From NCBI GenBank assembly GCA_965661285.1, contig CBFIDD010000002.1, positions 316,515 through 380,514 on the forward strand: DNA of 64,000 bases, given 5' to 3'. This DNA comes from Poseidonia sp. (lineage in GTDB: Archaea; Thermoplasmatota; Poseidoniia; Poseidoniales; Poseidoniaceae). Below the pieces are notes generated by a model. That model did not search any database, was not told the origin of the DNA, and was given only the letters and a program-made list of their open reading frames with translations. Positions 32,705-53,869 of the stretch are shown here, piece after piece (position 1 is the first letter of the stretch; each line of letters begins with the position of its first letter). A program made the translations under genes and the position numbers.

Positions 32705-35700
32705 ATGCGAGTGAATCGTGTTACTCTAGCGGCGACCCTGACGGCCCTGCTCTTGTCCAGCCTTCTGCTGAGTGCAGCCGTCAACCCCGCTCAAGAACAA
32801 CCGCTATTGGATGGAGAAGAACACATCGTCCACACCTCAGCACGGTCGACCTCAGCCGAAGTGTTCCTCTCGAGCGGAGGTTCAACCACACACGACGAAT
32901 TTTCAGGAGCCATCGCTGCATCCGACAACGGCTACGTGGTCGCAGGTGACGTGAATTCATCAGCGTCAACCCTCACCTTTGGCCCACATTCCTACACACC
33001 AACCTCTCCATACAGCAACGGCAACGATTTCTTCGTGGCTTCGTTGAACAACAACGGGGGATGGAATTACCTCGTCGGCGCCGACCACACCCAAGGTGGC
33101 GTTTCGTTCATGTCGGATGTGACCTCGCACGCCGGGAATGCCATCGTGGCCGGTTACATGTACGGGCCGGTTGATTTTGGGCCAACGACCCTCTCTTCAG
33201 CCGTGCAGTTTGACGCCTTTGTGGCCCAGACCGATGCCGCAGGAAATTGGATGTGGGCCAAAGGGTTCCAAACCCTCCCGAACTCATCCACCGACTCGAG
33301 CATACCGCAAGCCATCACCGTTGACCAGGTAGGCGACGTGATCGTCGCAGGATATTTCTCCGGTGAAACTGACTTTGGCGGCACCACCATCAACGTCTCA
33401 AATCCCGAAGTGTTCATCGCGAAATTGGACGGAGCGAACGGCGCTCTCAAGTGGGTCGTCAGTGGAGGAGGCATCGGTACGCAGCAGGTCACGGATGTCG
33501 TGGTGGATCCAAGTGGAACGATTCATGTTTCGGGCGTAACGCAAAACAACATACGTTTTGGAACACAAAGTTACAACACCATCGGAACAACTGATTCGTT
33601 TATTGTCAGGGTTTCAAATTCGGGCGCAATCCTCGGCATCAGCGGCTATGGCATCCCCAACCAGGCTGTATCACTTACCAACATGGCCGTGGACAAGAAT
33701 GCTGATCTCTACATCGGCGGCTCGTTTGAAGGTACAATGGCGAAAAACGGATGGTCCATCACCGCCAATAAAGGTGGTTCGGATTTATTTTTCATCAAGG
33801 AAGGAGCTACCCCAAACAATCAGTGGGCCGTTATCGGTGGCACCAACGCAGCCGACAGCTTGCGAGGTATGGAGGTCACATCGAAAGGCGAGCTTGTCTT
33901 CACCACGTTTTTCATCAGTTCGACCTTTACCGGCGGCACCAAAGGAGCGACGCCTACCAGCAGTAGTTGGTACAATAATCAAGCCATTGATGCTCTGATG
34001 GGTGGATTGACAAATACAGGTGGTTGGTCCTGGCTGGATGTTACGTCCAGCAACGCTCTCGAGCTTGGATGGGGATTAGCCTTGAATTCCAGCGATATTG
34101 CCACCGTCGTAGGCTCCTACGCAGGACCATCAGGTAGCGATACCATCACGAAAGGCAGCACAAGCGTCACCACGACGGGGGGTTGGGATAACTTTGTTTG
34201 GGCATTGGATCCGAGCATGAAAGCTGACAGCGACAACGACGGCGTGCCAGACGTGAACGATAACTGCCCCAGCGATGTCAACCCGCTTCAGGAAAACACC
34301 GACGGGGACGCACAGGGTGATGCATGCGATTCGGATGATGACAACGATGGCATCACGGACAATTCTCCGGACAACTGCCCCAGAGGTGGAGCGGCGAATT
34401 GGGGCTCCACACAGAACTTTAACGACCCGGCCAACTCCACCGATTGGGACCGAGATGGATGCAAGGACGATGTCGAAGACGCAGACATGGACAACGACGG
34501 CGTGGAAAACGATGTTGACCTTTGCCCACGCACGTCCTACCAACCGCCTCGCCCGACCTGGGTTTCTGATGAAATTACGGATGTTGACAGTGATGGTTGC
34601 CGAGATGCGGACGAGGATACCGATGATGACGGCGACGGATTTGAGGACGTCAGCGATGACTGCCCAACGGTGATTGGTAACTCAACCCTCGGTGAGGAAG
34701 GGTGCGTTGACAACGACGGCGATGGTTGGTCAAACAATTTCGATGACTGTCCTAACGATTTCGGCAACTCAACGCTGGGCGGCAAGAACGCCTGCCCCGA
34801 CATGGACGGCGATGGTTGGGCCGACGTTGACGACGCCTTTATCGAAGACCCAACACAATGGTCGGACGCTGACGGCGACGGCTACGGCGACAATCCCGAA
34901 GGAACCACGCCGGACGATTGCCCGGCGGCGGTTGGCACCTCGGTTTTGGACCGCCTCGGCTGTTTGGACACCGACGGCGATGGGTATTCTGACCCCGATA
35001 GCATGTGGGACGCAGAATCCGGCGCTGACGCCTTTATCGAGGACACAACGCAATGGTCCGACTTCGACGGCGACGGCTACGGCGACAACTATGCGAACGA
35101 TACATGGACGGACCGCAACCCGTCTTGGCCCGGCGAATATCGAGACGATGTCGTGCTCCAAGACGCCTGCCCCACGCAAGAGGGCACATCGTGGCAAAAC
35201 GGCATGATCGGTTGCCCGGACCAAGACGGTGATGGATGGTACAACCTCCAAGACGCCTTCCCAAACGACGCCACACAGTGGTCTGACGGTGACGGTGACG
35301 GCTACGGCGACAACGCTTCTGGAAACGATGCCGACCAGTGTCCAGACATCGCTGGCACCTCCACCACCGACCGGTTGGGTTGTGTTGATAGCGATGATGA
35401 CGGATATTCTGACCCCGACATCACATGGACACCGGCTCAAGGTGCTGACGCCTTCATGGCCGACCCTACGCAGTGGGCTGACCAGGACAACGATTTCTTC
35501 GGCGATAATCCCGCTGGCGACCGCCCCGATGACTGCCCGACCGTTCGTGGCACCTCCTTCATCGACCGCTTTGGTTGCGAGGACAGCGATGGCGATGGCC
35601 TCTCCGATGCCACCCCTGAATGGACGCTTGAACAAGGAGCAGATGCATGTCCCCTGGCTTACGGGAACTCGAGTGCTGACCGAATTGGCTGCGTGGACAC

Positions 35701-36187
35701 CGACGGGGACAACTACTCTGACCCAACACCTGATTATCGTGCAGAAGACGGTGCTGACGCCTATCCACAAGACCCGACGCGCTGGATTCTCGAACCGGAG
35801 GAAGAAGGCGCGCTCTTCGCCTCGAGCAACGTGCTCGTCGGCGGTGGCGTTGGACTCGTGGTGCTTCTCGCCCTGATCGGATTCTTCATGCGTGGACGTC
35901 GGCCAAAGAGCGACAACGCTGCTTGGGAGATACCGCCAACCGTCGGAATGCCGGACTTCAACGCTCAACCCGCAGCCATTTCGCCGGGATACGCAGCGCC
36001 GGTCGCCATGCCCGACTTCAACGCTCAACCCGCCCAGGCCACTGTGGCTGCTCAACCCGCCTATGCACCGCCCGTGGCACAGCCTGACCCCGCTCGGGAG
36101 TACTACAACAGCCTCATTGCACAGGGGTACCCACACGATGATGCCGTGCGATATACTAAGCAATACTTCAACCAGTTCCACGGTTGA
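32705..36187 (+). CDS. large type-I membrane-anchored surface protein: signal peptide, SBBP-type beta-propeller repeats, ~20 thrombospondin type-3-like Ca-binding repeats, TM, Pro-rich cytoplasmic tail
   Basis: Start set at MRVNRVTLAATLTALLLSSLLLSAAV (signal). Propeller-like units (GDVIVAGYFSGETDFGG, DSFIVRVSNSG). Repeated DxDxDGxxD units (DTDGDGYSD, DQDGDGW, DGDGDGYGDN). TM LVGGGVGLVVLLALIGFF. Tail with tandem MPDFNAQPA. Confidence 0.7.
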   Translation: MRVNRVTLAATLTALLLSSLLLSAAVNPAQEQPLLDGEEHIVHTSARSTSAEVFLSSGGSTTHDEFSGAIAASDNGYVVAGDVNSSASTLTFGPHSYTPTSPYSNGNDFFVASLNNNGGWNYLVGADHTQGGVSFMSDVTSHAGNAIVAGYMYGPVDFGPTTLSSAVQFDAFVAQTDAAGNWMWAKGFQTLPNSSTDSSIPQAITVDQVGDVIVAGYFSGETDFGGTTINVSNPEVFIAKLDGANGALKWVVSGGGIGTQQVTDVVVDPSGTIHVSGVTQNNIRFGTQSYNTIGTTDSFIVRVSNSGAILGISGYGIPNQAVSLTNMAVDKNADLYIGGSFEGTMAKNGWSITANKGGSDLFFIKEGATPNNQWAVIGGTNAADSLRGMEVTSKGELVFTTFFISSTFTGGTKGATPTSSSWYNNQAIDALMGGLTNTGGWSWLDVTSSNALELGWGLALNSSDIATVVGSYAGPSGSDTITKGSTSVTTTGGWDNFVWALDPSMKADSDNDGVPDVNDNCPSDVNPLQENTDGDAQGDACDSDDDNDGITDNSPDNCPRGGAANWGSTQNFNDPANSTDWDRDGCKDDVEDADMDNDGVENDVDLCPRTSYQPPRPTWVSDEITDVDSDGCRDADEDTDDDGDGFEDVSDDCPTVIGNSTLGEEGCVDNDGDGWSNNFDDCPNDFGNSTLGGKNACPDMDGDGWADVDDAFIEDPTQWSDADGDGYGDNPEGTTPDDCPAAVGTSVLDRLGCLDTDGDGYSDPDSMWDAESGADAFIEDTTQWSDFDGDGYGDNYANDTWTDRNPSWPGEYRDDVVLQDACPTQEGTSWQNGMIGCPDQDGDGWYNLQDAFPNDATQWSDGDGDGYGDNASGNDADQCPDIAGTSTTDRLGCVDSDDDGYSDPDITWTPAQGADAFMADPTQWADQDNDFFGDNPAGDRPDDCPTVRGTSFIDRFGCEDSDGDGLSDATPEWTLEQGADACPLAYGNSSADRIGCVDTDGDNYSDPTPDYRAEDGADAYPQDPTRWILEPEEEGALFASSNVLVGGGVGLVVLLALIGFFMRGRRPKSDNAAWEIPPTVGMPDFNAQPAAISPGYAAPVAMPDFNAQPAQATVAAQPAYAPPVAQPDPAREYYNSLIAQGYPHDDAVRYTKQYFNQFHG
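34850..35320 (+). repeat. coding near-tandem DNA repeats (~45-bp units) inside the TSP3 region
   Basis: CAATGGTCGGACGCTGACGGCGACGGCTACGGCGACAAT at 34852, a near-identical copy at 35047 and another at 35272. Encodes (T)QWSDxDGDGYGDN. Confidence 0.5.
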
Positions 36188-36204
36188 TTCGGGAAGGGCA
36201 GGCG

Positions 36205-37832
<1,628 letters not shown>

Positions 37833-37933
37833 TTACACACCGAGGTGTGTTGCCCCTCCCTAACAAAGTCCCTTTCTAATGGTTGTCCCTCATTCCTCTC
37901 CTCATCAGCCGATTACTGAGAAGAAAAGCGATG

Positions 37934-38416
37934 TCAAAATGAGCACACGGTGAGGTATCGCTCCAAGCGATCCACCCGACGTTGCCCGTTTTCATCGACC
38001 TCGCTCATGGCTCGAATGGATTCCTCGATCAGTGCGTGCTGGTCTTCCTGAAGTCCAATGATTCGACGAAGATGGTCGAGCATCGCCCATTCATCTTCGC
38101 TGATGACATCGTCGTCGAGCGCAGCGATGAGTGCAGACTGATAGGTGGTGGCGTCACCCATGTGATGACCACCGTATTCACTGCCCTCATCAAACGGCCA
38201 ATCGACTTCACCCGCCACAACCGCTCGGCACTCCGCCGTATCTGCTGGCGCCACGCCGAGAGCTCCGGCGAGAATCCTGAGAATTTGGGCCTCATCATCC
38301 GTCACGATGGCGTCTTCAAAGGCCACTCGGAGTGTTTCAAGGTAGAGATAGAGACCCCGTGTGGGTTGCAGTGCCATGAATTCACGTGGAGCAGACTCGT
38401 CTTTCAAACTTCTCAC
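37934..38416 (-). CDS. acidic hypothetical protein with internal repeat (TerB-like helical repeat?)
   Basis: 160 aa. Two related segments (VTDDEAQILRILAGALG / ISEDEWAMLDHLRRIIG). No confident family. Confidence 0.3.
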   Translation of the reverse strand: MRSLKDESAPREFMALQPTRGLYLYLETLRVAFEDAIVTDDEAQILRILAGALGVAPADTAECRAVVAGEVDWPFDEGSEYGGHHMGDATTYQSALIAALDDDVISEDEWAMLDHLRRIIGLQEDQHALIEESIRAMSEVDENGQRRVDRLERYLTVCSF

Positions 38417-38469
38417 CTTGCATCAAGGGTGCGAGGAGAAGTTTGTCATACAGGTAAATACAATTTGTC

Positions 38470-38497
38470 ATCATTTAGAATACAATTATATACGGCT
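38470..38497. promoter_or_regulatory. AT-rich TATA-like element in the divergent intergenic region (TerB-like gene / RHH gene)
   Basis: CATTTAGAATACAATTATATAC sits ~15-35 nt upstream of the RHH gene ATG (38508). Consistent with an archaeal TATA box for a leaderless or short-leader transcript. Confidence 0.3.
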
Positions 38498-38507
38498 TGG
38501 TTCAGTC

Positions 38508-38900
38508 ATGAATTACGAGGCCACCAAGATGACCCAGCCAACCAGCGCCGTTTCCCTCCGAATCACGGAGGAAGATCTCGCCCTGCTGGACGCCCGCATT
38601 GGCATGGACGGCGCACGAAGTCGTTCGGACGTGGTGCGTTTGGCCATTCAGGAATTCCTTCACAACCAACCGCTCCTGCACGACATGAAGTCCGTTCGTA
38701 TCCCACTTGGTCGAAACGACCAGGTTCAACTTGGGAAATTGTACGAACTTCAAGGCACAACGCCCGAAATTGCAGCCCAAGAGGGGTTGAAATTGTACAT
38801 TGACCAAGCCATTGACAAGATTGTCAACGGCATCAAACTCGATGATGCACTGGAGGCGTCCAGAGCAGCAACGATTCGACGCAACGAATACCAAGAATGA
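38508..38900 (+). CDS. ribbon-helix-helix (CopG/Arc/MetJ-like) DNA-binding protein
   Basis: VSLRITEEDLALLDARIGMDGARSRSDVVRLAIQEFL shows the RHH pattern (beta-strand then two helices). Start set at the internal ATG 38508. Confidence 0.5.
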   Translation: MNYEATKMTQPTSAVSLRITEEDLALLDARIGMDGARSRSDVVRLAIQEFLHNQPLLHDMKSVRIPLGRNDQVQLGKLYELQGTTPEIAAQEGLKLYIDQAIDKIVNGIKLDDALEASRAATIRRNEYQE

Positions 38901-41880: not shown

Positions 41881-44800
41881 TCACCGCTGCGGGATGGCTT
41901 GCATTTGAGCGATTTCACCGCTCATTCGCGTCAGTGCTTGGACAGCGACCTCTTGGTGTTGAGGGCCCATCTCTTCTCGACTGTACCGGGCCATCTCAAA
42001 CGTGTTGTCGAGGGCGGTCAGAGCATCCTCTGACACGCCCTGCAGCGCTTGGCGGATGGCGAATTCGAATTCCCGAACGGTTTCGAAGTCACGTCGGAGG
42101 AAGCCACGCTGCTGCAGCAGACCGCAGAGGTCCTGATAGCAGGTGAAGATGGCTTCTCGTGTTGCATCCCCGGCCGCCAACAACTCGGCGGTGTAAGCGA
42201 AGACCTCGGCCGCATCCTTGAGCAGGTCGTCGGCGAGTTGCTTTCGTCGGTACATCACGACGCCACCGGCGATGAGCGCGGCGAGCGCAAGCACGAGGAG
42301 GTAGGACCACCACGGTGTTTCCGCTTGTTCTTCTGCAAATTCGTATTGCACAGCAAAGCCTTCACTTCGCAGTGATTCAAAGCCCTGAAGGCTTTGGGCT
42401 GAAAGGCGAGGATCGTTCACGATGATATCCATGGTCAACTGGCCCCAAACATCAGCATCGCCGTATGGCGGGTCAGCATCGAACACAAAGGTGGCTTTCC
42501 CGGTTTCATCGGTTTGAGCACCACGGTTGGCGAGTTGGGATTGGTTGGCATCGTAGAGATAAATGACAACATCAATCCCCGGCAAGCCCGTACCCGTATC
42601 TTCGGCGATAACGGTGAGGGAACCGCCCACGTCTTCTTGTTCGTCCTCAACCACCTCGAGGAGGTCTACGGTGATGACGGCGTCGACCTGTACAAACACC
42701 GTTTGACTGATGCTGGCAGCGTTGAGGTAAAGGGAATCGTTTCGAGCGACGTCAAGGAAGAAATACTGCGAACCGACTTCGAGCCAATACGGCGCCGTTG
42801 CGGTCAGCGAGAAGTTTCCGTTTGACCACACGACGCTGCTCTCTGTGAAGCAGCGTGCTCCTTCCCGACCACCCTCACAATCCGAACCGTTCCCAATGCT
42901 CAGCAGGAGGTTCTCAAAGACCTCACCTGAGCCTCCGATCTCCTGCACAGAACCCGAATAGAAGACGGGTTCAAACACACTATCAGAGCGGGTGACGACG
43001 TTCGTGTTTGAAGTTGGGTCGACTTGAATCAACAGGTCAGCCCATACCCGAACACTGCTTTCTACGTCGGCTGGAAGATGCGCCTGCGTCCCTCCAAAGA
43101 CCACGCCGATGGTGTGTTCGCCCCGGGACAAGTCCATGGTTGCAGGCACCGTTGCGCTCCACGCACCATCAGCACCGGTGGTGGTCGTGAAGAGCGTGTT
43201 TCCGTCGAGTTGGACGAGCAATTCGAATCCGACCAAACCGTCGCGGTCAACGGTGTCGAAGTCGTACAGGCGGCCACTCAATTCCCATGTGTCGCCACGG
43301 GTGGCATCAATACCATCGTCGAACACCAAGGTGACCCATGAACGATGGGAGAGGAAGAACGAGACGTTTCCTTCCCCGGCACGGTAATATCCTTGTGGGG
43401 GTGATTCTGCGAACAAGGTTCTGTTCCCGAAGTCAAAGATGTCGGGAACGACCCAGTCATAGGTGAACGCACCGTTTTGGTCGGTGGTCAAGGTGGAGAT
43501 GACGATGCCTTCCACGACCAGTTGAACTTCGTGGTTTGCAACGCCCACGAGTTGATTGTCAACCACCGAACCGGTGATGGTCACGGTTTGGTTCACCGCC
43601 ACCGGCGAGGAAATATCCACCGTTACGAGGACTGGACTGAAGATTTCCCACAAACCACTGGCGTTGCTGGGGAGGTAAGCCACGGTCCCGGTGAATCGGG
43701 TTTCCAGAACCACTGGACCAAGCGGAGCGTCTGCGGGCACAGGATGGACCGCAGAAAACTCGCCAAGTTCGTCCGTCGTCGTGTTGGTCAGCCACTGACC
43801 ACCCAGCCATACCTCGATGGTCAGGTTCGGTAGCGGGTTGTCAACCACATCGAGAAGACGGCCTTGGATGGTGATCGTTGTTTCTCGGTCGGCATCGCCT
43901 GTTGCGGTCAACAGGAGAATCTTCGTGGGTACGCTAACGTTGAATTCCACCATCGCAGAGCTGGGTTGGTAGTATTCGGGATTGTTGGTGTCCCCGTAGC
44001 CGACAGGGTCAACCCATTCACGACCACCACGGAACTCCACCGAGATTTGGTGGGGACCTGCAGCCGTGTCTTCTGGGAGCGCGTACGAAAGGGTGTATGC
44101 ACCCGAGATGTTGTCCGTTTCAATGCTGGCAACGGGAACGCCATCGATGAGAAGGTGCACCACGGCAGTGGAAGGTACACCGTTTCGTTGCAAGACCAAG
44201 CCCAGGTCGTCCAACAGCGTGCCGTTCACGACCAACATGTCGCCAGCCACCAGCACCGTTGGTGCTTCGGTGATGGTAACCTCGGTCGCACCGAGGACGA
44301 CAAAGGACGAACTGGCGTTGGTTCCAATGATGCCCGTGGTGCCGGCGATTCCGGTGTAGTCCGCATGGATGCCGGTCGGGCCGACGCTCATGTTGGCTGG
44401 GACGGTCAGGTTGCCCCAAGCAGAACCGTTGGAAGCCGTCAAGACCGTGATTTGGACGGGTGAAGCATCGTTCAGCGTCGCCGTGAGCGAGACGAGGACG
44501 CTTTGATTAGCCAGCGGGAGGCCTTGGTTGTCCCGGAGGAGAATCGAGAACTCAACGATGTCTCCCCTTTCGGTTCGGTCGTTCAACGAGGGTTGACCGA
44601 TACCGTCAAGTGCGGGGAGAATGAAATTCATGACCGAGAACCCACGAGAATCGAACGAGGTGTTGTTGGTCGAGCCAACGTAATAGTTGACACTCGGGAT
44701 GTAGGTGGCTTCCATCACGTGGCTACCAGCGGCGAAGGTTTCACTGAGGCGAATCGTGGCGTTCCAATACCCATCAGCACCGACGGCACCGCCTGTGGCG

Positions 44801-47800
44801 GTGAAGCCAGTCGGTTGGCCGTCAATGGAGAACAACACGTTGGCGTTCGCCAAGACGGAGTTGTCCCGCTCAACCAGTCCCGAGCCGTTGTCGGAGGTGA
44901 TTTGCCCGCTGATGTTGAAGGAGGTTCCTGCAACGGGGTTGGCTGCGATGCTGTCAACGACCATGAAAGTCAACGAGCGCACGGTGATGCTGGTCAGGTT
45001 GGCGCTGGTTGAAAGGAGGTCGGTGGAACCGTTGAACACCATCTGAACCACGATGAGGCCCAGAGGATGGTCATAGGGCACGTTGTAGGTGAAGTTGGCA
45101 AACCCTTCTCCGTCCGTGGTTTGTGGCAGGAGCCATGTTTCGTGGAATTGCAGCGCCACCTCGTAATTCGAGAGAGGAGTAAACAAGTCTGAGGCTTCGA
45201 CAAGTTGCGCTGACATGTTGATGTCGTTTCCACGGTTGATGACCACGGCATTCAACGGCTGGAGGTTCTCGAGGCGAGAGACGCCCATGACCTGGATGGG
45301 CGATTGCGCCGTGGCGGTGAGATAGAACGGCGAGGACTCGTTGACGACGGTGACCACCAGCGTGTGCGGGCCACGGGTCGTACCGTTGCCGGCCGTGTCG
45401 GTTGGCACGGTCATGTTGAAACTCCCGTTGTTGGTTGTGGCGTAGTTGCTCAAGAGCAACTCTTCGGGGTTTTCTAGCCAGAACACGTTCAGCCTGACGG
45501 CGGAAATGAGTGGACGGGTTGCGTTCTCAGCGTCTTCAACCTGCCCGACGACGTTGAACGGGACGCCTGCCGTTACCGTACTTGGCACAGAGATGAGCGA
45601 GATATCGCTGGTGACTTGCACGGTCACGTTGATCACAGTCAAATTACCGTAGCGGCGCGAGTTACCTTCACTAAGAGCTGCTGTGAGGTCGTCCTGAACA
45701 ACGATGCCGACGTCGTAGAACCCGGGTGCAATGCCCGACGGTGTGAAGTCGAACGTGGAGTTTCCTTCGCCGTTTGAGACCACCGTTCCAAGGCTTTGGT
45801 TTGACTTACCGTAATCCCAGACATAGTCAACGCTTGCTCCGCTGATGTTGGAGTTGTCCGCAATGTCGGTGATCTTCGCCGTGAATGAAACCGTGTTGTT
45901 CATCTCCACGATGTAGGATGAGCGTTCGGCCTCCACCACAACCTCGGTGATGATCCCACCCAGCGTGGATATTTGTGCTGGGGGTGCAGGGGGGACGGAC
46001 GTATCCACAAAGGCGTAGTATGCGCCGCCCGCAGGCGCTTGACTGACGAAGTCAAAGTCAAGAATGAATTCATAAGCGTCTGAACGGAGGTTCATCGGCA
46101 TCCTGATAGGGATATCAAAGGCACCTGTGCTGTTGTTCAAGGTTGATTGCGCGATGTCGATGGGCCCTTGTTCGGTGAACAGGCTGACACTGATGAGCGT
46201 GGTGTTGTTGAGGACCGGCGTGAGATAGACCGCATCAAAAACATCGCCGACAAGTCGGGTCGAGTTGCCCATGAATGTCCAATCCTGCCCGATGGAAAGA
46301 TTCCATCCGATGTTGGCCATGACACGTAGGGAACCGAGTCCAATTGAGGGTTGGTAAAACGATGAACCGTTGAAGGAGATGCCGATGGGGTAGTCGCCCG
46401 AGCGTAGGTTGGCATCGAGAGGGATCACAATTTCCAACACATCGGTTTCCGGATCCACGGTGGTGTTGAACCACGACCCATTGAAGGTGAAATCGTAATT
46501 GCCGAAGATTTCAACGCCGGCGCCCACGCCCCGATGGTCGTTGATCTGCACACTGACAAAAGCATCCTGTCCACGCACCTGTGATGACTCCTGGACCTCA
46601 AACGTCAGCAAGCCTCGGAGGAAGTACGGGGGGTCGACCGTCAAGTTAGCGTCGTCCGTTGCTGGCAGCGTTGAGGGGAAGAAACGCAATCGCGTCTCGA
46701 TAGCGCCGGCTGCTACACCAACGTTGGTTGGCATGGGATACTGAACGGTGAAATTCCCGGTGACACTTTGATTGAACAACTCCACCCAAACATTTCCGGA
46801 ATCCAAGGCCCGAATGGCAAACTGTAGGTTCCCTGTCAGAGCCGTTGGCGTTGGGCCGAGGGACAGGGCACTTCCGTTCACCCAAACGTCATCACCGAGG
46901 AGGAAAACGCTCCTGTTGCTGGTCAGAGGACCTTCGATGGTGGCCGTTAGATTTGGGGCCTCGGTGACGTTGAAGGTAATTGAGGTCGTGGTCGGGTTGA
47001 GATGGAAGAGAGCGGGTGTTGAACCTGGAACGGAGGCATCTTGCCAGCCTGAGAATCCAAGGGTCGCCGATAACGGACCGAGCGTCTCGGCCTCGCTCAA
47101 GTTGATCGAGATGCTCCAGGAGCCACTGATGTCGGTTTGTGCAGTGAGATTTTGCGCTCCGTCAACTGAAGAAGTGTACGACAGCCACACGGTTTGATTT
47201 GGCAGATTGGAGATTTCATCAATCGGTTCATTCGCCAGAGCCAAGCGGCCCTCGAGAACGGTTGTGGCGCCCGCGCCGACAACCGGGGTGTTGATGGCCA
47301 AGGGTGCGGTGTGGACGATGGTGGTGTTCTCGGTCAAATTGACGTAGCCTTCGAAAATAACGCCATCATGCGAAACATAACCGGATTGACGGTGTTCGAT
47401 GACGATGTTGTGCATACCGGGTGCACTGGGTGCGTCGGGGAAGCCGATCATGCTGAAATTGCCGTTGGGGTCAGTGATGTTTTCCTCAAGCAGGAGTGAA
47501 AGGTCAGCGCCTGGACCAGGGACAAAGGGTGCATCACTTACGGGTGAGAGGTAAGCGAACACACGAATATTGGATGCCGGAGTGCCGTTGGCGGCATACC
47601 TCAACTGCCCTGACACCGAGATGCTCTCGGTACCGTCCCGAGCAACGGTGAACGTTGAGATGGTTTGGTTAACGACCTCGATCTCCTCAGCTGGTGGGCA
47701 CGGGTCAAAGGCAATCCATCCGAGGTCGGTGTTTCCGTTGGCGCTGTTTTGCTGCAGTCGAACCTCCGACCACGTGGCGGCGTCCGAGGCGTAGACGGCA

Positions 47801-50800
47801 TAACCTTCGCCTGTCCATGTGCCTCCGATGTAGCCCGTCACCTGACGAGCAGGAAGCCCAGCAAGACGAGCCATGGTCACGAAGGCCGTGTTAAACTCAC
47901 GACACGAACCCTCTTTCACGGCTTCAACCACATTGAGGGTGACGTCCATCGGACTCATGGTTCCCGAACCGTTGAAGTTACGCTTGAACTCGGTCGTAGC
48001 ATTGCCGTTGGTGAGGAAGTCTTCCAGGGCAAGCGCCGTATTGTAAGCATCCGTTGCCCCTGCTTCGGCAATGACAGCGGCCGTGACGTTATTCACGTAT
48101 GAGAAGGCCGAAGAAGAGTCGGTAAACTGAGGGTCGACAAGCAGCTCGTAAGGGAAGCCTTGACCGGGGACGGTCGTTGACGCCAAGTTTGCCCAATCAA
48201 AGTAATACTCAGGTTGTTCGTACAAGACCTGCTCTACAGAACCAGCAACCAGCGAGAGCATGTGCGTATCGTTCGACCTTGAGATGTTGGCTGAGGTTTC
48301 GAAGACGAATGAGATGTTGGAATAATATGCAGGAGCAGGGATTTGCCCTGTCGTTATGGGGCGGTTGAATTGAAGGTTCCACTGGACGGTTGAGTTGGCA
48401 AGGGAAATCGGTGCGAGGTGAGTAAAGTTGCTCATGGGAACAACGACCGCCTCCGAGGGATGAACGCTGTCGAGGTGCGCGTAGGTGCTTCCGGTGTAGA
48501 AGTCATTGGTGATGGTGCGCCACCGATGGTCGCCGTTGAGATCGACGACTCCCGAGGTATTGTTTGCGAAAAAGACAACATCATCCGACATGATGTCATC
48601 GCTGGGGTCAAACACATCAAAGGGCGCGCCTATGCAATCAAAAACCCAAAATGCATCAGGACACTCATCACCGTCAAGCATCCCACCACCGTCTGTATCG
48701 GGGTTGGTCCAGTCGGTTCCGGTTTGATTCTCAACGGCATCGGGCAATCCATCACCGTCAAAGTCGGCGGGTTGAATATCATCAGAAGGATCGTTTTGCG
48801 GGTTCGTTCCGTCAAAGTATTCACTGCGGTCATCCACGCCCCCCTGGTCGGTATCGAACGCGTTGGGAGCTGTCACCCAAACATCTTGGGAGCCGTTGGT
48901 GATGCCGATGTAAATCAAATCACAGCCAGTGGTGTTCTCAAAGTAGTTGTTGAGTCCGTCGGCGTCATCGTCCAAGAGATTTGAACACGGCTGATTGGGA
49001 TCGGTGTTGTCCTGAACTTCGTCAAAGTCATTCACGCCGTCAGCATCGCTGTCGGCGATGCTGGGATTGGAGAACCATCCAAAGGTCCCGAGAAGTTCTT
49101 GCCAGTCTGCCAGACCATCACCGTCGGTGTCCTCGTAATCGTCGTCGCAATACTGCTGCGTTGTGCTGATTGTTCCTGAATTCGTGGCAGCCGTGTGGCA
49201 AAATGAACCGTTGCGATTTGCTACCTGGGTCGCCACGCCCGAGGGCCCGTTGGAAACACCCTGCAGAATGTTGGCAACCACAGTCGCGTAGGCAAAACTT
49301 TCCCATGTTCCGGATACGTTGTACCAACCAACGCCCCCTGCGGGGTTGAAACCCGAGCCGTTTCCTACTTCGACCCTGCTGGCGCTGAGTTCCTGCACGA
49401 AGGTGGTCTCAAAGTTCACAAGTGAATCGCAAGGATCCGTACCGTGGCTGATGTTTCGTTCCTGCCCGTCGTTGATGCCGCCAAAGTCCGTGTCGGCCAC
49501 ATTCCACAGCGTACACGTCAGGTTTTCCTCCCAGTTCTGTATGCCGTCCTGGTCTTCGTCTCCTGAATCCTCACGGCGTGTGGGGTCCGTCTCACCGGCA
49601 TCCAACACACCGTTGAAGTTGGTGTCTTCCTCGCCGTCATCAAAAGCATCCCCGTCGGTGTTGTTGTTGCGCGGGTCGCTGGCTTGGGCAGGGTTGCCGT
49701 AAGCACCGTTCACCTCGATACCGTCGCTGATCCCGTCGCTGTCGGTGTCCGAAGACGTTGGATCGGTCAGCAACGTAAAGGCTTCGTACGAATCGTTCAA
49801 CCCGTCGCCGTCGGTGTCTGCCCTCTGCGGATCTGTCGAGGTGATACCGTCAACCTCAGCGGTAAATGTGGCACAACCACCCGGTCCAATGCCTTGGACT
49901 GGGTCGCAGGGCGAGGTGGTCTCGGTGACGATGCCATCGGGGCCGTTGCGGAAACAGGGCGAAGAGCCGCACATGGTCGTCCATGTCGGGTTGACGTACT
50001 CGAGGAGGTTGTTCAGGCCATCACCGTCGGGGTCGCCGTTTGGACCGTCAGCGTTGGAGGGCGAGGTGGCGTTCAAGCCGTTAGCGGCTTCCCAACCGTC
50101 GGGCATGCCGTCGCCGTCGGTGTCCCAACCTGCGGGGTCTTCATCGATGACGCCGTCGCCATCATCGTCATCCGATAGACAATCGGCATCGCCGTCGTTA
50201 TCCGAGTCCGCCGAGTCGACAAATCCGTCTTTATCATCATCAAATCCATTGGCGCAAATATTCCCGACGGGGTCCTCGTCGCAGAGGATGATCGAGCCCG
50301 TGCCGTCGGAACCTGCCGCACCGCATGCGGGTTGGTTGAACTGCATGGCGTCTTCCTCGTTCCAGTCGTTCACGGGAACGGTGCCGTTCCACCAAACACC
50401 GTTGTCCAGGACAGAAGCGGTGTTGGTGTTGTCCCAACCGCTGGGTTGGAGGTAGAGGTATTCTTGCAAATTGGACATGCCGTCGCCATCCGGGTCAGCG
50501 ACTGCGCCATCGGCACCGGTGGACGACAACGGGTCGAGGCCGTACTTCCACTCCCAGCCATCGGGCAAGCCGTCGTTGTCCGAGTCGGGGTCGTTGGGTT
50601 GGGTGTTCATGAGGTACTCAAGGCCGTACGTGAGACCATCACCGTCCTGGTCGGATGCTGCTTGAACATCAACGACCGTGTACTGAATGGAGGCGAGGGT
50701 GGAGAGGACCATCAAGAGGGTGAGTGAGAGCGACTTGAGCGCTTTTTTCCGCTCTGCGAGGGCTGGTCGAATCGCGGCCGCATTGGAATTCGAGCCTGTC

Positions 50801-50814
50801 AGCATGAGTCTCAC
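41881..50814 (-). CDS. giant (2977 aa) membrane-anchored surface protein: signal, TSP3 Ca-binding repeats, transglutaminase-like core (His apparently replaced), many Ig-like/beta-sandwich repeats, TM, DUF4129-like cytoplasmic tail
   Basis: Signal LSLTLLMVLSTLASI. N-terminal DxDxDG repeats. TGase-like GSCREFNTAFVTMARLAGLPARQVTGY ... ATWSEV ... WIAFDPCP. C-terminal WWSYLLVLALAALIAGGVVMY TM then RRDFETVREFEFAIRQAL ... FEMARYSREEM. Confidence 0.8.
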   Translation of the reverse strand: MRLMLTGSNSNAAAIRPALAERKKALKSLSLTLLMVLSTLASIQYTVVDVQAASDQDGDGLTYGLEYLMNTQPNDPDSDNDGLPDGWEWKYGLDPLSSTGADGAVADPDGDGMSNLQEYLYLQPSGWDNTNTASVLDNGVWWNGTVPVNDWNEEDAMQFNQPACGAAGSDGTGSIILCDEDPVGNICANGFDDDKDGFVDSADSDNDGDADCLSDDDDGDGVIDEDPAGWDTDGDGMPDGWEAANGLNATSPSNADGPNGDPDGDGLNNLLEYVNPTWTTMCGSSPCFRNGPDGIVTETTSPCDPVQGIGPGGCATFTAEVDGITSTDPQRADTDGDGLNDSYEAFTLLTDPTSSDTDSDGISDGIEVNGAYGNPAQASDPRNNNTDGDAFDDGEEDTNFNGVLDAGETDPTRREDSGDEDQDGIQNWEENLTCTLWNVADTDFGGINDGQERNISHGTDPCDSLVNFETTFVQELSASRVEVGNGSGFNPAGGVGWYNVSGTWESFAYATVVANILQGVSNGPSGVATQVANRNGSFCHTAATNSGTISTTQQYCDDDYEDTDGDGLADWQELLGTFGWFSNPSIADSDADGVNDFDEVQDNTDPNQPCSNLLDDDADGLNNYFENTTGCDLIYIGITNGSQDVWVTAPNAFDTDQGGVDDRSEYFDGTNPQNDPSDDIQPADFDGDGLPDAVENQTGTDWTNPDTDGGGMLDGDECPDAFWVFDCIGAPFDVFDPSDDIMSDDVVFFANNTSGVVDLNGDHRWRTITNDFYTGSTYAHLDSVHPSEAVVVPMSNFTHLAPISLANSTVQWNLQFNRPITTGQIPAPAYYSNISFVFETSANISRSNDTHMLSLVAGSVEQVLYEQPEYYFDWANLASTTVPGQGFPYELLVDPQFTDSSSAFSYVNNVTAAVIAEAGATDAYNTALALEDFLTNGNATTEFKRNFNGSGTMSPMDVTLNVVEAVKEGSCREFNTAFVTMARLAGLPARQVTGYIGGTWTGEGYAVYASDAATWSEVRLQQNSANGNTDLGWIAFDPCPPAEEIEVVNQTISTFTVARDGTESISVSGQLRYAANGTPASNIRVFAYLSPVSDAPFVPGPGADLSLLLEENITDPNGNFSMIGFPDAPSAPGMHNIVIEHRQSGYVSHDGVIFEGYVNLTENTTIVHTAPLAINTPVVGAGATTVLEGRLALANEPIDEISNLPNQTVWLSYTSSVDGAQNLTAQTDISGSWSISINLSEAETLGPLSATLGFSGWQDASVPGSTPALFHLNPTTTSITFNVTEAPNLTATIEGPLTSNRSVFLLGDDVWVNGSALSLGPTPTALTGNLQFAIRALDSGNVWVELFNQSVTGNFTVQYPMPTNVGVAAGAIETRLRFFPSTLPATDDANLTVDPPYFLRGLLTFEVQESSQVRGQDAFVSVQINDHRGVGAGVEIFGNYDFTFNGSWFNTTVDPETDVLEIVIPLDANLRSGDYPIGISFNGSSFYQPSIGLGSLRVMANIGWNLSIGQDWTFMGNSTRLVGDVFDAVYLTPVLNNTTLISVSLFTEQGPIDIAQSTLNNSTGAFDIPIRMPMNLRSDAYEFILDFDFVSQAPAGGAYYAFVDTSVPPAPPAQISTLGGIITEVVVEAERSSYIVEMNNTVSFTAKITDIADNSNISGASVDYVWDYGKSNQSLGTVVSNGEGNSTFDFTPSGIAPGFYDVGIVVQDDLTAALSEGNSRRYGNLTVINVTVQVTSDISLISVPSTVTAGVPFNVVGQVEDAENATRPLISAVRLNVFWLENPEELLLSNYATTNNGSFNMTVPTDTAGNGTTRGPHTLVVTVVNESSPFYLTATAQSPIQVMGVSRLENLQPLNAVVINRGNDINMSAQLVEASDLFTPLSNYEVALQFHETWLLPQTTDGEGFANFTYNVPYDHPLGLIVVQMVFNGSTDLLSTSANLTSITVRSLTFMVVDSIAANPVAGTSFNISGQITSDNGSGLVERDNSVLANANVLFSIDGQPTGFTATGGAVGADGYWNATIRLSETFAAGSHVMEATYIPSVNYYVGSTNNTSFDSRGFSVMNFILPALDGIGQPSLNDRTERGDIVEFSILLRDNQGLPLANQSVLVSLTATLNDASPVQITVLTASNGSAWGNLTVPANMSVGPTGIHADYTGIAGTTGIIGTNASSSFVVLGATEVTITEAPTVLVAGDMLVVNGTLLDDLGLVLQRNGVPSTAVVHLLIDGVPVASIETDNISGAYTLSYALPEDTAAGPHQISVEFRGGREWVDPVGYGDTNNPEYYQPSSAMVEFNVSVPTKILLLTATGDADRETTITIQGRLLDVVDNPLPNLTIEVWLGGQWLTNTTTDELGEFSAVHPVPADAPLGPVVLETRFTGTVAYLPSNASGLWEIFSPVLVTVDISSPVAVNQTVTITGSVVDNQLVGVANHEVQLVVEGIVISTLTTDQNGAFTYDWVVPDIFDFGNRTLFAESPPQGYYRAGEGNVSFFLSHRSWVTLVFDDGIDATRGDTWELSGRLYDFDTVDRDGLVGFELLVQLDGNTLFTTTTGADGAWSATVPATMDLSRGEHTIGVVFGGTQAHLPADVESSVRVWADLLIQVDPTSNTNVVTRSDSVFEPVFYSGSVQEIGGSGEVFENLLLSIGNGSDCEGGREGARCFTESSVVWSNGNFSLTATAPYWLEVGSQYFFLDVARNDSLYLNAASISQTVFVQVDAVITVDLLEVVEDEQEDVGGSLTVIAEDTGTGLPGIDVVIYLYDANQSQLANRGAQTDETGKATFVFDADPPYGDADVWGQLTMDIIVNDPRLSAQSLQGFESLRSEGFAVQYEFAEEQAETPWWSYLLVLALAALIAGGVVMYRRKQLADDLLKDAAEVFAYTAELLAAGDATREAIFTCYQDLCGLLQQRGFLRRDFETVREFEFAIRQALQGVSEDALTALDNTFEMARYSREEMGPQHQEVAVQALTRMSGEIAQMQAIPQR

Positions 50815-50893
50815 GCTATCGGGTGCGTCTGATGCCTCATAAGGGAAATGGTACGATGTTCATACAACAACGATTTCGTGAGGCGATTTTTGC

Positions 50894-53869
50894 TCACAAA
50901 TCTTCGAGTTCCTCGAGCAGCTCGAGGTCGTCGTCATCGTCGTCTGCCAGCACAGGCGCAGGTAAATCATCGTCGTCCTCAATCGGCTCAAGTTCCTTTT
51001 CAAGACCCTCGTAGTCCTCGTAGTCTCCGTAGTTAGCAAGGTCAGGACTATCATCGCTGCGGCTTCCACGACCTCGTGCGTAGAAGAGCAGGGCCAAAAT
51101 TACAACGTAAAACGCAATGGTTTGCGGTTCAGGACTGACCAGTTCTCGCAGCAAACAGTTGGCGCCGCTGCATTCCGTCATGTAGTTGAAGGTGAAGGTC
51201 TGGACATAGTCTTCGGAGTACGGTGTCTCGTTGTTCATGGGCGTGACTCTGAACTCAAAGGCTGCTTGCTGGCTGTCTTTGAGATCTTCAGGAGCCTGCA
51301 TGGTCACGCTGAAATCCTTTGAGGAATATGCGGGGAGGTTGATGATGAGGAAATCGCTCCCCAACTGGTTTGAGGTCGCCCGGATGGCGCCCTCCCAACC
51401 ATCGGGTTGGTCAAGGCGAATCACGACGTCGAGCGGGATGTTGTTTTGGTTGCTGATGCGATATTCGAGGCTCTTTGATTCGCCCGGAGCGAAGCGAGAT
51501 TTCTCGGTTTTATCCGTGAGCTCGATGCGGTTTGGAACGACTTCTTCCTGAATGACAACCTTCACCGGGAGGTCGAAGTAGCGAGCGTCGTCAATGTCAA
51601 CACCCTCCTCGATGATGCGGGTGTAGACCGTGTGCTCACCCGCTTCCACCTGACCCCTCAAGGTGATGTCGAGTTTCATGTCGACGTACTCATCCGGGGC
51701 GAGGTTCACCGCCACCAAATTGGAGTTGCTGCCGTTGGAAATGACGTAGTCCCATGCAGCATACTTCGGGTTGTTTTCGGCGTTTTGTTCAACATCACGG
51801 GGATTGATGATCTTCCAGGTGGTTGAGCCAGAACCGGTGTCGCTGGAATCGGTAATTCGGAGATTGAAGTACACCGACGCATCGCCGGTGACCGGTCCAA
51901 CTTGACCGAGCGGATTGTCCTCGCCCGTCCCGTCGCTGTCCGAAATCACCTCGACAAGAATGCCAAACGTCCGGTGAACGGTGAAGGCGATGTCGGTGCG
52001 AAGTTCTGAATCTTCCTTGCTGGACACCGAGATTTCAAACAAACCGATGTCGACACCGTCTCGGTCGGCTGGAGGATAGACCTCCATTCGAATCGTCAGG
52101 ATTTGGGTCGAGCCGATGTCGGGCGTGAGCGAGTAGATGCCTTCCTCTGCGAGTTCAAGACCGGTATCGTTGTCGTAAAATCGGTACTGCCAGTCATCGG
52201 GTTGCTCAAGAATTCGCATTTTGAACGAGTCGGTCTGGAATCCCAAGTTGAAGACGTCGATGAAGAAATCACCGACCTCATCTGCATCCACGTAGTGCGA
52301 AAGGGTCTCATCATAGGCTTCCGGACGCGTTGAATCTGCGATTTGTTTCTGGTGCTCATCGTCTTCGTAGACAAAGAGACGTGGCGCGGCAAGGGTATCC
52401 ACTTCCTCGAATTCTAGCGTGAGGGTTCGTATGGCCACCTCTTCGTTTTGGCCGAGTTCGTTCTGTGCATAGACTCGTGCTTCGATTTCCAAGGAATCGG
52501 GCGCACTGTCCAAATCGCCCTCAGGAACTTCGAGTTGGAGTTCGGGGATGACCGATGCACCGCCGCCGTTGAGCGTGTAGGTGCTGCTTGGTGCGCTCCA
52601 CTGTGGGTCTGACCATGTTGAGGGGAGATTGGTTTCTAGGTCAAAGATCACGTCAATGCTGCTCGATGAGGAGCCCGTATGTTCCACGAGGAATTCGACT
52701 TGGACGACCGCACCGGGAGCGAATAAGACCACATCGGGCTGATTTGAGGGCAGGGTGAGGTAAATGTCGTTCTCAAGCATGGTGATGCCGGGGTGTTCAA
52801 ACACAACGGCGTGGCCCTGTACGTCCTCCACCTCAAGGCGAACGGGGTAGTCACCCGCAGCGATGCCTGCCTCGTAAGTGTAAGTGAAGTTGCCCACCAA
52901 GCCGTTGTTGTCGAGTTTGAAATCATCATCGTCAAAGTTCTTCTCGAAAACCACGTTTGCGCCGTTGGGCGTGTCCATGATGAGGTTGACCTCCTCAATG
53001 TCATCTCGGCCAAAGGCGTCGCGAACTTCAACGGAGAACTGCATCTCTCGGAAGTCAGGACGGTGGTTGGGGGACCACTCAAATTTCTGGGCGTCGTTCC
53101 AGTTGCACCCGAAGGCTTGGTTGCAACTGTGGACGCGTACGCTCGAACCGGAGAGGGCGTTGGTCATGACCTGGAGACGGGAGTACCCTCCCGAGCTTTC
53201 CATCTTGCCAAAGGCGATGTCAACCGCACAATCGCCACCACCCACACCGCCGGTGTTGCCTTCGCAGGTGGCTTGGGCGTCAATGCGGATTTTCAGTTGC
53301 TTTCCTTTGGCCACCATGAACCCGTTGGGCCCGGCGTCAAACTCCACTTCGATGATGCTCCAATCGCAGCCGCCCCCGGTGAAGGGGTTCGGCGAGCATG
53401 CATCTTCCAGTTGTCGGTTCTCTGAGGAAATTTGGGTGTCGCCCGACTTGAGCGAAAAGGTGACATCTGCGGTGGAACCCTCGGCGCCACGGAATTGGAT
53501 GTAGACAGACAGGCGAGCGGTGTTGGAGGAACCGCTTCCGTTGATGTAGAGGTCGCTGATCATCTCGGCGCTTCGGAACTCCAATCCGTCAATGGCGCTG
53601 CCTTCTTCCTGGCCGCCGTTGGGTTCAATTGTGGTAATGGAACCTTGCCCGCCGGTTTCTGAGGTCGCAGCATCGAGATAGAGTTCGTAGGTTTGCTCGG
53701 GGACAGAAACAGGAGCCACAACACGCTCGTCGTCCAGTGTTTGAATCGGCGTGAGAACAGGCGCTGCGGGCACCATCATGCCCACCAAGGAGAACACGAA
53801 CAACGCAACGAGACCAAAGGCCACGGTGCGCTTGCCATTTCCTGAGTCACCAAACAGCATCAAGTCCAC
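50894..53869 (-). CDS. large (991 aa) surface protein with N-terminal anchor/signal, C-terminal TM and poly-acidic cytoplasmic tail
   Basis: TVAFGLVALFVFSLVGMMVPAAPV near the N-terminus. Beta-rich acidic ectodomain. C-terminal AFYVVILALLFYARG TM then DDDDLPAPVLADDDDDDLELLEELEDL. Confidence 0.6.
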   Translation of the reverse strand: MDLMLFGDSGNGKRTVAFGLVALFVFSLVGMMVPAAPVLTPIQTLDDERVVAPVSVPEQTYELYLDAATSETGGQGSITTIEPNGGQEEGSAIDGLEFRSAEMISDLYINGSGSSNTARLSVYIQFRGAEGSTADVTFSLKSGDTQISSENRQLEDACSPNPFTGGGCDWSIIEVEFDAGPNGFMVAKGKQLKIRIDAQATCEGNTGGVGGGDCAVDIAFGKMESSGGYSRLQVMTNALSGSSVRVHSCNQAFGCNWNDAQKFEWSPNHRPDFREMQFSVEVRDAFGRDDIEEVNLIMDTPNGANVVFEKNFDDDDFKLDNNGLVGNFTYTYEAGIAAGDYPVRLEVEDVQGHAVVFEHPGITMLENDIYLTLPSNQPDVVLFAPGAVVQVEFLVEHTGSSSSSIDVIFDLETNLPSTWSDPQWSAPSSTYTLNGGGASVIPELQLEVPEGDLDSAPDSLEIEARVYAQNELGQNEEVAIRTLTLEFEEVDTLAAPRLFVYEDDEHQKQIADSTRPEAYDETLSHYVDADEVGDFFIDVFNLGFQTDSFKMRILEQPDDWQYRFYDNDTGLELAEEGIYSLTPDIGSTQILTIRMEVYPPADRDGVDIGLFEISVSSKEDSELRTDIAFTVHRTFGILVEVISDSDGTGEDNPLGQVGPVTGDASVYFNLRITDSSDTGSGSTTWKIINPRDVEQNAENNPKYAAWDYVISNGSNSNLVAVNLAPDEYVDMKLDITLRGQVEAGEHTVYTRIIEEGVDIDDARYFDLPVKVVIQEEVVPNRIELTDKTEKSRFAPGESKSLEYRISNQNNIPLDVVIRLDQPDGWEGAIRATSNQLGSDFLIINLPAYSSKDFSVTMQAPEDLKDSQQAAFEFRVTPMNNETPYSEDYVQTFTFNYMTECSGANCLLRELVSPEPQTIAFYVVILALLFYARGRGSRSDDSPDLANYGDYEDYEGLEKELEPIEDDDDLPAPVLADDDDDDLELLEELEDL

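Follow-up and report, generated by a model that had tools for sequence, protein, structure and literature searches.

Do three very large acidic proteins encoded close to one another in a marine archaeon belong to a single cell-surface system, or do they represent separate components of the cell envelope? We addressed this question for three genes, here called A, B and C, in a 64,000-nucleotide stretch of Poseidonia sp. DNA (contig CBFIDD010000002.1, positions 316,515 to 380,514), which we refer to as the window. An original prediction was that the three proteins could together form one adhesion or aggregation system. Our analysis favors another reading, to which we assign a probability of roughly 0.6: A, B and C would be three non-homologous cell-envelope glycoproteins of the core genome that fall into two independent units, A by itself and C together with B, and do not form one system. 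The three genes are located as follows.

32705..36187, + strand: gene A, 1160 aa; predicted signal peptide, SBBP-like head, 16 thrombospondin type-3 (TSP3) repeats, transmembrane (TM) segment and Pro-rich tail, from the open reading frame (ORF) and Pfam TSP_3
41881..50805, − strand: gene B, 2974 aa; predicted giant TgpA-like surface protein with Pfam matches to Transglut_core, DUF4129, TSP3_bac, MG2 and Big_1
50894..53860, − strand: gene C, 988 aa; predicted signal peptide, ectodomain of multiple beta-sandwiches, short TM segment and acidic tail ending in the conserved DDDLELLEELEDL

Gene models and common topology

Homologues of A, B and C stem almost exclusively from metagenome-assembled genomes (MAGs) labeled Poseidoniales, Poseidoniaceae, Poseidonia or "Euryarchaeota/Thermoplasmatota archaeon", and the homologue from Candidatus Poseidonia alphae is 62% identical to protein C. 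The source organism is a Marine Group IIa (MGIIa, Poseidoniaceae) archaeon. As longest ORFs the genes code for 1180 (A, 32645-36187, +), 2977 (B, 41881-50814, −) and 991 residues (C, 50894-53869, −), at the places and with the lengths given by the original prediction, with TTG or GTG as start codons. Judged by the lengths of the orthologues, translation would instead begin at the ATG codons at 32705, 50805 and 53860, which leads to proteins of 1160, 2974 and 988 residues. The earlier combination of a start at 32705 with a length of 1180 residues was correct about the ATG; the protein that begins there is 1160 residues long.

A, B and C are real conserved genes and not assembly artifacts. Since B has 62 full-length, collinear orthologues from different species (2975–3036 aa), and since the three genes contain no long DNA repeats, we can eliminate the possibility, considered in the original prediction, that they are chimeras assembled from repetitive DNA. 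The repeats that do occur are short and diverged (60–90% identical), and further full-length copies of B sit on contigs of 3.0 Mb and 886 kb. All three genes are universal in the family, occupy a single locus and are tightly conserved in length, with mean column identities of 68–69%. For core genes of this kind, a housekeeping role in the envelope is at least as likely as facultative adhesion.

What the three proteins have in common is their topology. All are acidic (pI 4.05; 13.5–18.5% Asp plus Glu) and begin with basic residues followed by one hydrophobic segment in a hydropathy scan. A and B contain one C-terminal hydrophobic segment each by the Kyte–Doolittle scale, the corresponding segment of C lies below the cutoff, and the tails that follow are 60–120 residues long. 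A high beta content is suggested by the secondary structure of AlphaFold2 (AF2) models and by weak Ig-like Pfam matches. Hydropathy, isoelectric points and models thus agree with the N-terminal signal or anchor, acidic beta-rich ectodomain, C-terminal TM segment and tail that had been proposed, and the tails do differ from each other as described, with two MPDFNAQPA copies in A, DUF4129 in B and poly-Asp/Glu in C. From these features we consider A, B and C very probably to be surface or envelope proteins.

Because BLASTP detected no pairwise similarity among A, B and C at an E value of 1e-3, the "shared architecture" of the original prediction holds for topology only; paralogy or shared modules among the three were rejected on the same result. 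The TSP3 repeats ascribed to two of the proteins could be confirmed: the motif DxDxD[GN]xx[DN] occurs 16 times in A, 14 times in B and not at all in C, and TSP_3 and TSP3_bac exceed their gathering scores. A looser count of DxDxD gives 22 in A and 18 in B, where shuffled sequences lead to an expectation of 2–3.

These observations bear directly on the proposal that all three proteins constitute one adhesion or aggregation system that signals through the cytoplasmic tails. Common type-I topology, conserved tails and the TSP3 repeats of A and B speak for this idea, as do partial NCBIfam matches of the TSP3 regions to the Myxococcus cohesion and gliding adhesins MtsC, MtsD and CglD, and passages in two papers that tie thrombospondin and adhesion domains of Marine Group II (MGII) to particle attachment (PMC6461757, PMC4511931). 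However, the adhesin matches all remain far below the family cutoffs, the three proteins lack any sequence relationship, and C is devoid of TSP3 repeats. Furthermore, A is separated from B by genes on both strands, including those for glutamate dehydrogenase, a ribbon-helix-helix (RHH)/CopG-like ORF and the XPD helicase that had been noted there. Together with the genomic context of A described below, these points make the proposed signaling system improbable, and we would give hardly better odds to any system that includes all of A, B and C.

Gene A and the RNA polymerase operon

Gene A lies behind the archaeal RNA polymerase operon of the window, and its product can be divided into several regions.

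23278-23928: rpoH, RNA polymerase operon
23941-27558: rpoB (fused), RNA polymerase operon
27555-30743: rpoA', RNA polymerase operon
30743-32308: rpoA'', RNA polymerase operon
32332-32652: L30e (rpl30e), after rpoA''
32882..34204, + strand: N-terminal beta-propeller-like head of A, aa ~60-500; SBBP-related by a partial NCBIfam match
34217..35734, + strand: TSP3 region of A, aa 505-1010; 16 DxDxD[GN]xx[DN] motifs and matches in the PDB
35810..35890, + strand: predicted C-terminal TM segment of A, aa 1036-1062; Kyte–Doolittle maximum 2.63
35948..36184, + strand: predicted cytoplasmic tail of A; two MPDFNAQPA copies and a Tyr-rich terminal motif at aa 1127-1160

In archaea the position after rpoH-rpoB-rpoA'-rpoA''-rpl30e is usually taken by nusA/rps12/rps7. 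Here this place belongs to A, which directly follows rpoA''-rpl30e in the window as well as in the orthologue loci L084, L085 and L086. In the most distant of them, L084, where A is 46% identical, A keeps this place, the genes downstream of it differ from those of the window, and no homologue of B or C is called within 10 kb on either side. We therefore attribute the proximity of A to these genes in the window to local synteny and not to a fixed association. The single adhesion system of the original prediction does not agree with this arrangement, in which A is tied to the RNA polymerase/L30e operon, and C and B alone stay together in the loci examined. A short hairpin (AAAGGC...GCCTTT) lies within the 52 nt that precede A, and a tRNA-Lys(UUU) gene is found directly upstream of rpoH (23155-23230, +).

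Orthologues of A form about 100 clusters with 46–92% identity and lengths of 1156–1162 aa, several of which public records already list under the name "thrombospondin type 3 repeat-containing protein". The head of A matches the NCBIfam family of the SBBP lipoprotein LipL53 partially and far below the family cutoff (E 5.7e-17, aa 116-385). Pfam returned no match to this head even at an E value of 1. Distant homologues of the head (P0219-P0240, E 1e-26 to 1e-60) do carry PF06739. We regard the head of A as related to the suspected SBBP domain; SBBP membership itself is no more than likely. The assignment of the following region is firmer. Pfam TSP_3 scores 28.4 bits (cutoff 25), and the PDB search retrieved thrombospondin-2 (E 3e-15) and COMP (E 1e-14). 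At the DNA level this region comprises the diverged repeat families D2-D4 and D7, and its sequence is rich in Cys with a recurring CP...GC pattern.

Behind the TM segment, A continues with a Pro-rich linker and a Tyr-rich end of 35 residues. The two MPDFNAQPA copies, at aa 1082 and 1102, belong to DNA repeat family D6 and are 91% identical. The last 35 residues hardly vary among 20 orthologues, the most distant of which is 48% identical; P1127, D1128, Y1133, Y1134, L1137, Q1140, Y1142, Y1150, T1151, Q1153, Y1154 and F1158 are the invariant positions. No Pfam match was found for the tail of A or for that of C. Taken together, A may be a stand-alone adhesin-like protein in which an SBBP-type propeller head would be mounted on a "wire" of TSP3 repeats stiffened by Ca2+, with one TM anchor and a Tyr-rich cytoplasmic end.

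Genes C and B and the element at their junction

Two conserved noncoding blocks accompany genes C and B.

53891..53907, − strand: block GCAAAACCGTTTAACAC upstream of C, similar to a B recognition element (BRE) and TATA box; recognizable in most of 27 diverse loci aligned
50832..50867, − strand: 36-nt element TTGTATGAACATCGTACCATTTCCCTTATGAGGCAT, ending 27 nt before the ATG of B

The question of whether C and B belong together turns on the conservation of their adjacency. In the 80 GTDB species loci recovered with C, B comes next in each case in which the available DNA extends far enough downstream. Taken alone, this adjacency says little about a functional link, because the flanking housekeeping genes are equally collinear: the whole block E1a-LipA-SDR-C-B-p171-XPD (SDR, short-chain dehydrogenase/reductase) is preserved in nearly all loci. 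C and B could then be functionally unrelated neighbors held together by the strong synteny of Poseidoniaceae, and the apparent presence of a separate conserved block upstream of each gene would fit such an arrangement. However, the boundary between SDR and C is broken by differing insertions in L069, L075, L208, L209, L211 and L212, whereas that between C and B is never interrupted. Four distant loci have one to six different genes between SDR and C and still maintain C next to B. Over all lineages with such insertions, the inserted genes include BtpA, an aminotransferase, FolB, an FGE-sulfatase and a methyltransferase. In addition, our searches recovered both families from one and the same narrow range of taxa, and the junction element occurs solely between C and B among the metagenome matches listed. 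We therefore regard unrelated neighbors as a doubtful explanation and lean, by a small measure, toward functional coupling of C and B.

The element TTGTATGAACATCGTACCATTTCCCTTATGAGGCAT is present exactly once in each of 83 C-B loci (83/83) and is retained in species with C proteins of only 48–60% identity. Its mean pairwise identity is 0.93; the 32 nt that precede it reach 0.31, and the 27 nt that follow it reach 0.53. The spacer between C and B varies from 30 to 180 nt, and with it the distance of the element from the stop codon of C. The start of B is 31–32 nt away in the majority of loci; a single clade has about 22 nt. The core CGNNCCATTYSSCTTAWG persists in distant lineages at 29–33 nt from the ATG of B. 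A metagenome scan for the element returned at least 120 contigs; among the 120 matches listed, 106 are flanked by C on the upstream and by B on the downstream side, 13 are truncated by the contig end and 1 is unresolved.

Several functions of this element could be dismissed. Since it occurs once in the window, once per C-B locus and, among the metagenome matches listed, at the C-B junction only, a regulon-wide motif was rejected. An upstream ORF of eight codons (MNIVPFPL and stop), invariant in the main clade, was rejected as coding: substitutions show no third-position bias, and its ATG and/or stop is absent or shifted in L209, L211 and L212, though the core motif persists there. A structured RNA or riboswitch was rejected as well, with an RNAalifold energy of −0.93 kcal/mol, no compensatory pairs and single-sequence z-scores of about −0.1 to −0.2; Rfam gave no match to the element at E ≤ 10. 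Position and conservation leave us with the guess that the element might be B's own promoter or operator, a promoter-proximal control site at a fixed distance 5' of the gene.

Upstream of C, the block GCAAAACCGTTTAACAC stands out from flanks that vary across the 27 loci, and it may serve as the promoter of C. In some lineages a hairpin, CCCCCTCGTAGAGGGGG, is located just 5' of this block. A gene for tRNA-Leu(UAA) lies between the SDR gene and C (53961-54047, −). Because of this tRNA gene, C would not be a continuation of the SDR transcript without tRNA processing.

The product of gene B can be divided into five regions.

48706..50661, − strand: N-terminal TSP3 region (bacterial type), aa ~49-700; 14 motifs, TSP3_bac
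47686..48573, − strand: TgpA-like ectodomain (beta-sandwich and transglutaminase core), aa ~745-1040; from Pfam, PDB and Foldseek
42331..47685, − strand: beta-rich stalk of ~1800 aa, aa 1041-2825; weak Ig-like matches and N-glycosylation sequons
42250..42312, − strand: predicted C-terminal TM helix, aa 2832-2852; Kyte–Doolittle 2.18 (hydrophobic segment 2834-2857 in the scan)
41932..42141, − strand: predicted cytoplasmic DUF4129, aa 2889-2958; PF13559

The B orthologues were collected from gene loci, as the protein-database search yielded fragments of B only. In the long-read ("pilon") assemblies L207 and L208, B, C and their neighbors are broken into many small gene calls, which looks like the result of frameshift errors; splitting of this kind would account for the large number of B homologues that the protein database lists as "fragment".

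B contains a transglutaminase-like core of the TgpA type, which the original prediction had not described. Pfam PF01841 (Transglut_core) matches aa 918-1038 of the 2977-aa ORF with an E value of 1.4e-14 and 54.7 bits (cutoff 23), and the closest solved structure by sequence is the periplasmic domain of TgpA from Pseudomonas aeruginosa (6g49). An AF2 model of aa 700-1150 (predicted local distance difference test (pLDDT) score 76, predicted template-modeling score 0.76) was matched by Foldseek to TgpA (6g49/6g4h) with E values of 5e-10 to 7e-10, probability 1.0 and target TM-scores of 0.62–0.66. The alignment covers about 300 columns and the whole periplasmic domain, and the next matches are 10^6-fold weaker. 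The only non-orthologous matches of B in the large protein database (P0274 and P0275) are canonical proteins with TgpA_N, Transglut_core and DUF4129.

The catalytic triad of this core is incomplete. Where TgpA contains DAHAW, B contains DAATW, so that Ala1010 occupies the position of the catalytic His, with Cys968 and Asp1034 in place (Cys971, Asp1037 and position 1013 in the 2977-aa numbering). In the 62 orthologues this column holds Ala, Thr, Ser, Gly or Asn and never His, Cys and Asp are present in all 62, and the strand offers no conserved alternative base. The canonical relatives P0274 and P0275 have His in the same alignment column. Beyond this set, the B proteins of L212 (Cys/-/Asp) and L211 (Cys/-/Asn) also lack the His, whereas L209 and L210, which represent a distant Poseidoniales lineage with B proteins of 3368–3385 aa, contain an intact Cys-His-Asp triad.

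Could B nevertheless act like TgpA, as an envelope-maturation enzyme (transglutaminase, protease or deamidase) with C as its substrate or cofactor, and so build or cross-link the MGII envelope? The whole periplasmic fold is kept, Cys and Asp are invariant in the 62 orthologues, the triad is complete in the L209/L210 lineage, and B and C are core genes; TgpA itself is essential and has transglutaminase activity in vitro (PMC3507681). On the other hand, His is missing in 62 of 62 orthologues as well as in L211 and L212, Asp is replaced by Asn in L211, and no residue of that strand suggests itself as a substitute base. Judging from the domain order, the 1800-aa stalk would also place the module far from the membrane, unlike in TgpA. 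An active enzyme of this type thus seems unlikely to us. Given the lost catalytic His and the invariant Cys and Asp, the module in this clade would most likely be a binding or scaffold element, or support noncanonical chemistry, and not be a standard cross-linking enzyme.

In the remaining parts of B, TSP3_bac matches two segments of the N-terminal region (E 4e-8 and 8e-13; 28.7–48.4 bits, cutoff 25), and aa 100-700 are the best-conserved stretch of the protein, with a majority identity of 0.84–0.92 over the 62 orthologues. Weak Pfam matches to Big_3_5, Big_7, MG2, Big_1 and CarboxypepD_reg are distributed over aa 1821-2840 of the stalk; no Ig-like Pfam match was obtained for aa 1040-1820. The entire protein contains 85 NxS/T sequons, compared to 32 ± 5 in shuffled sequences; they lie mostly between aa 300 and 2500, and the two ends of the protein (the first 300 and the final 500 residues) have few of them. 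DUF4129 (PF13559) was detected with an E value of 1.7e-7 in the whole protein and 1.3e-9 in the tail alone (31.6–38.4 bits, cutoff 24.8), and this region has a conservation of 0.83. TgpA_N/DUF3488 (PF11992) gave no match in B, which has a single N-terminal hydrophobic segment. An NCBIfam scan of A, B and C found no archaeosortase or PGF-CTERM signal of the kind the original prediction had suggested looking for; the sole match to a sorting signal was GVDTG_CTERM (E 0.067) on the internal TM helix of B.

Protein C has 471 homologues, the closest of which (P0001) is 99% identical and also 988 aa long. A profile search of 1.84 billion representatives gave 197 matches at E ≤ 1e-3. These are mostly fragments and include about 15 full-length clusters, and relatives of about 750 aa fit part of the profile only. 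Almost every named member comes from a Poseidoniales-type archaeal MAG and is annotated as "hypothetical protein", and the C family appears to be confined to Poseidoniales by these searches. The one Pfam assignment is NPCBM_assoc, a weak match at aa 795-831 with 26.6 bits for the whole protein (cutoff 24.4) and no single stretch that passes; the orthologue P0284 matches the same family with an E value of 6.6e-10. C has no NCBIfam match and no sequence relative in the PDB. A fold search with the whole C model returned generic strings of macroglobulin and Ig domains (TM-score ~0.1, root-mean-square deviation ~30 Å) and was uninformative at a pLDDT of 58. We describe C as a probable string of beta-sandwich domains and claim nothing more. 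Its short C-terminal hydrophobic segment, TIAFYVVILALLFYA, falls within a helix (912-932) of the AF2 model, which is of low confidence. The tail contains runs of Asp and Glu, and the extreme C-terminus, DDDLELLxELEDL, is largely invariant.

Several points weigh against the reading of A, B and C as envelope glycoproteins in two units. Apart from the collinearity of the genes around C and B discussed above, signal peptides and TM helices were judged by hydropathy alone, and the mostly beta model of C reaches a pLDDT of only 58. The 36-nt element does not resemble the canonical BRE/TATA block upstream of C. Finally, the invariant Cys and Asp and the intact triad of L209 leave room for residual or altered enzymatic activity of B.

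With these points considered, we still prefer the two-unit reading, which combines A as described above with the following view of C and B. B may be a giant type-I version of bacterial TgpA with the same ectodomain fold and the same ending of TM segment plus DUF4129, in which a long glycosylated stalk would carry the TSP3 array and the TgpA-type module at its distal end. C would be a lineage-specific partner of B in the same surface structure, possibly by physical contact. Sequence features and analogy are consistent with surface exposure, with Ca2+ binding by the TSP3 arrays and with N-glycosylation of B. A bolder proposal is that C, the 36-nt element and B constitute the core of the MGII cell envelope: B would be the archaeal counterpart of the TgpA system, extended into a long glycosylated stalk, with the triad intact in one lineage and reduced to a Cys/Asp pseudoenzyme in the dominant Poseidoniaceae, and the element would be a locus-specific operator, shared across the lineage, at which a factor sets expression. 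We view this proposal as a long shot.

Other features of the window and the orthologous loci touch less closely on A, B and C. The window further contains a lipoyl synthase/2-oxoacid dehydrogenase cluster, FtsZ and ribonucleotide reductase. A 314-aa ORF (54853-55797, −) without a Pfam match overlaps lipoyl synthase on the opposite strand and is considered spurious. At coordinates 1-233 of L209 and L210, another giant gene (3533 aa in L209, 8132 aa in L210) ends beside E3 of the dehydrogenase cluster. Between A and B, the RHH/CopG-like gene (38361-38900, +) is kept upstream of XPD in related loci. At 38442-38487, about 65 nt 5' of its RHH/CopG-like domain, the 22-nt unit TTTGTCATCAGGTAGAATACAA is repeated in tandem (2.1 copies), and the RHH protein may use this repeat as its operator. 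The same protein would be one candidate for a factor that binds the 36-nt element. The segment 8001-10600 has a G+C content of 0.45 compared to about 0.57 elsewhere, and it includes a gene for a restriction endonuclease with AspBHI_N and Mrr_cat (8612-9799, −) and, adjoining it, a TetR-family regulator (9936-10586, −); this segment is probably a horizontally acquired restriction island. Lastly, L005 (NZEQ01000074.1), P0122 and P0428 are labeled "Verrucomicrobiales bacterium" or "Deltaproteobacteria bacterium" and yet carry the archaeal locus or proteins with 83–88% identity. They are almost certainly mis-binned MAG contigs.

Comparison with known systems

The uncultured archaea of Marine Group II belong to the most abundant archaea of the surface ocean. 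Because A, B and C are universal in the family, conserved in length and predicted to be surface-exposed, they are good candidates for envelope or attachment structures, and they might also be considered as targets for antibody or fluorescence in situ hybridization-type probes and as phage receptors. The locus-specific conserved element offers a starting point in the search for a regulator in this uncultured lineage.

Genes for thrombospondin and calcium-dependent adhesion domains have been described in MGII as a category (Rinke et al. 2019, PMC6461757; Orsi et al. 2015, PMC4511931). In the passages concerned, these genes resemble A and B in the organisms and repeat types; these passages mention neither a TgpA-like core such as that of B nor its loss of His, the pairing of C with B, the place of A behind the RNA polymerase operon or the intergenic element. 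In the literature searched we found no account of the TgpA-type core of B, the graded decay of its triad and the Poseidoniales-restricted partner gene, nor of the fixed place of A after the RNA polymerase/L30e operon and the locus-specific conserved element. A literature search on the Poseidoniales S-layer and the MGII cell envelope returned nothing relevant. Archaeal S-layer glycoproteins can be compared to A, B and C through indirect sequence features only, namely the sequon excess of B, acidity and C-terminal anchors.

For C, the nearest named group is that of COG1470 proteins with the NPCBM-associated NEW3 domain (PF10633). One UniRef record gives the name "COG1470 family protein" to an orthologue of 62% identity; C would comprise roughly eight or more beta-sandwich domains, and the weak match concerns a single one of them. 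For A and B, the nearest known counterpart is the calcium wire of thrombospondin and COMP, with which they share arrays of DxDxDGxxD (16 in A, 14 in B). A also resembles thrombospondin in its many Cys residues and the recurring CP...GC pattern. The likeness to CglD, MtsC and MtsD of Myxococcus consists of partial NCBIfam matches (CglD 2e-29) that are far below the equivalog cutoffs and indicate similarity at the level of repeats, not orthology. Unlike bacterial TSP3 surface proteins, A and B have no VWA or MYXO-CTERM domain and would be held in the membrane by a TM helix that continues into a long cytoplasmic tail.

B also has a close parallel in TgpA (PA2873) of P. aeruginosa, with which it has in common the transglutaminase core, the fold of the ectodomain, and a TM segment followed by a cytoplasmic DUF4129. 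B differs in size (2974 compared to 688 aa), in the single signal/anchor segment that takes the place of the polytopic TgpA_N, in 650 aa of TSP3 repeats added at the N-terminal side, in a beta-rich stalk of about 1800 aa between core and TM segment, and in the replacement of the catalytic His (by Ala, Thr, Ser, Gly or Asn) in this clade. The genes upstream differ as well, with the Poseidoniales-specific C preceding B, and PA2875-PA2874, which we take to be a MoxR ATPase and a DUF58 protein, preceding TgpA. When 51 ORFs and ORF fragments from across the window were scanned with Pfam, no MoxR- or DUF58-type partner for B emerged. In P. aeruginosa, the essential TgpA, for which transglutaminase activity was observed in vitro, is co-transcribed with PA2875-PA2874 (PMC3507681). 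Proteins with the TgpA/DUF4129 combination are widespread and poorly understood, and the B orthologues, with the triad intact in one lineage, His lost in most, and both His and Asp lost in another, provide a natural series for probing their function.

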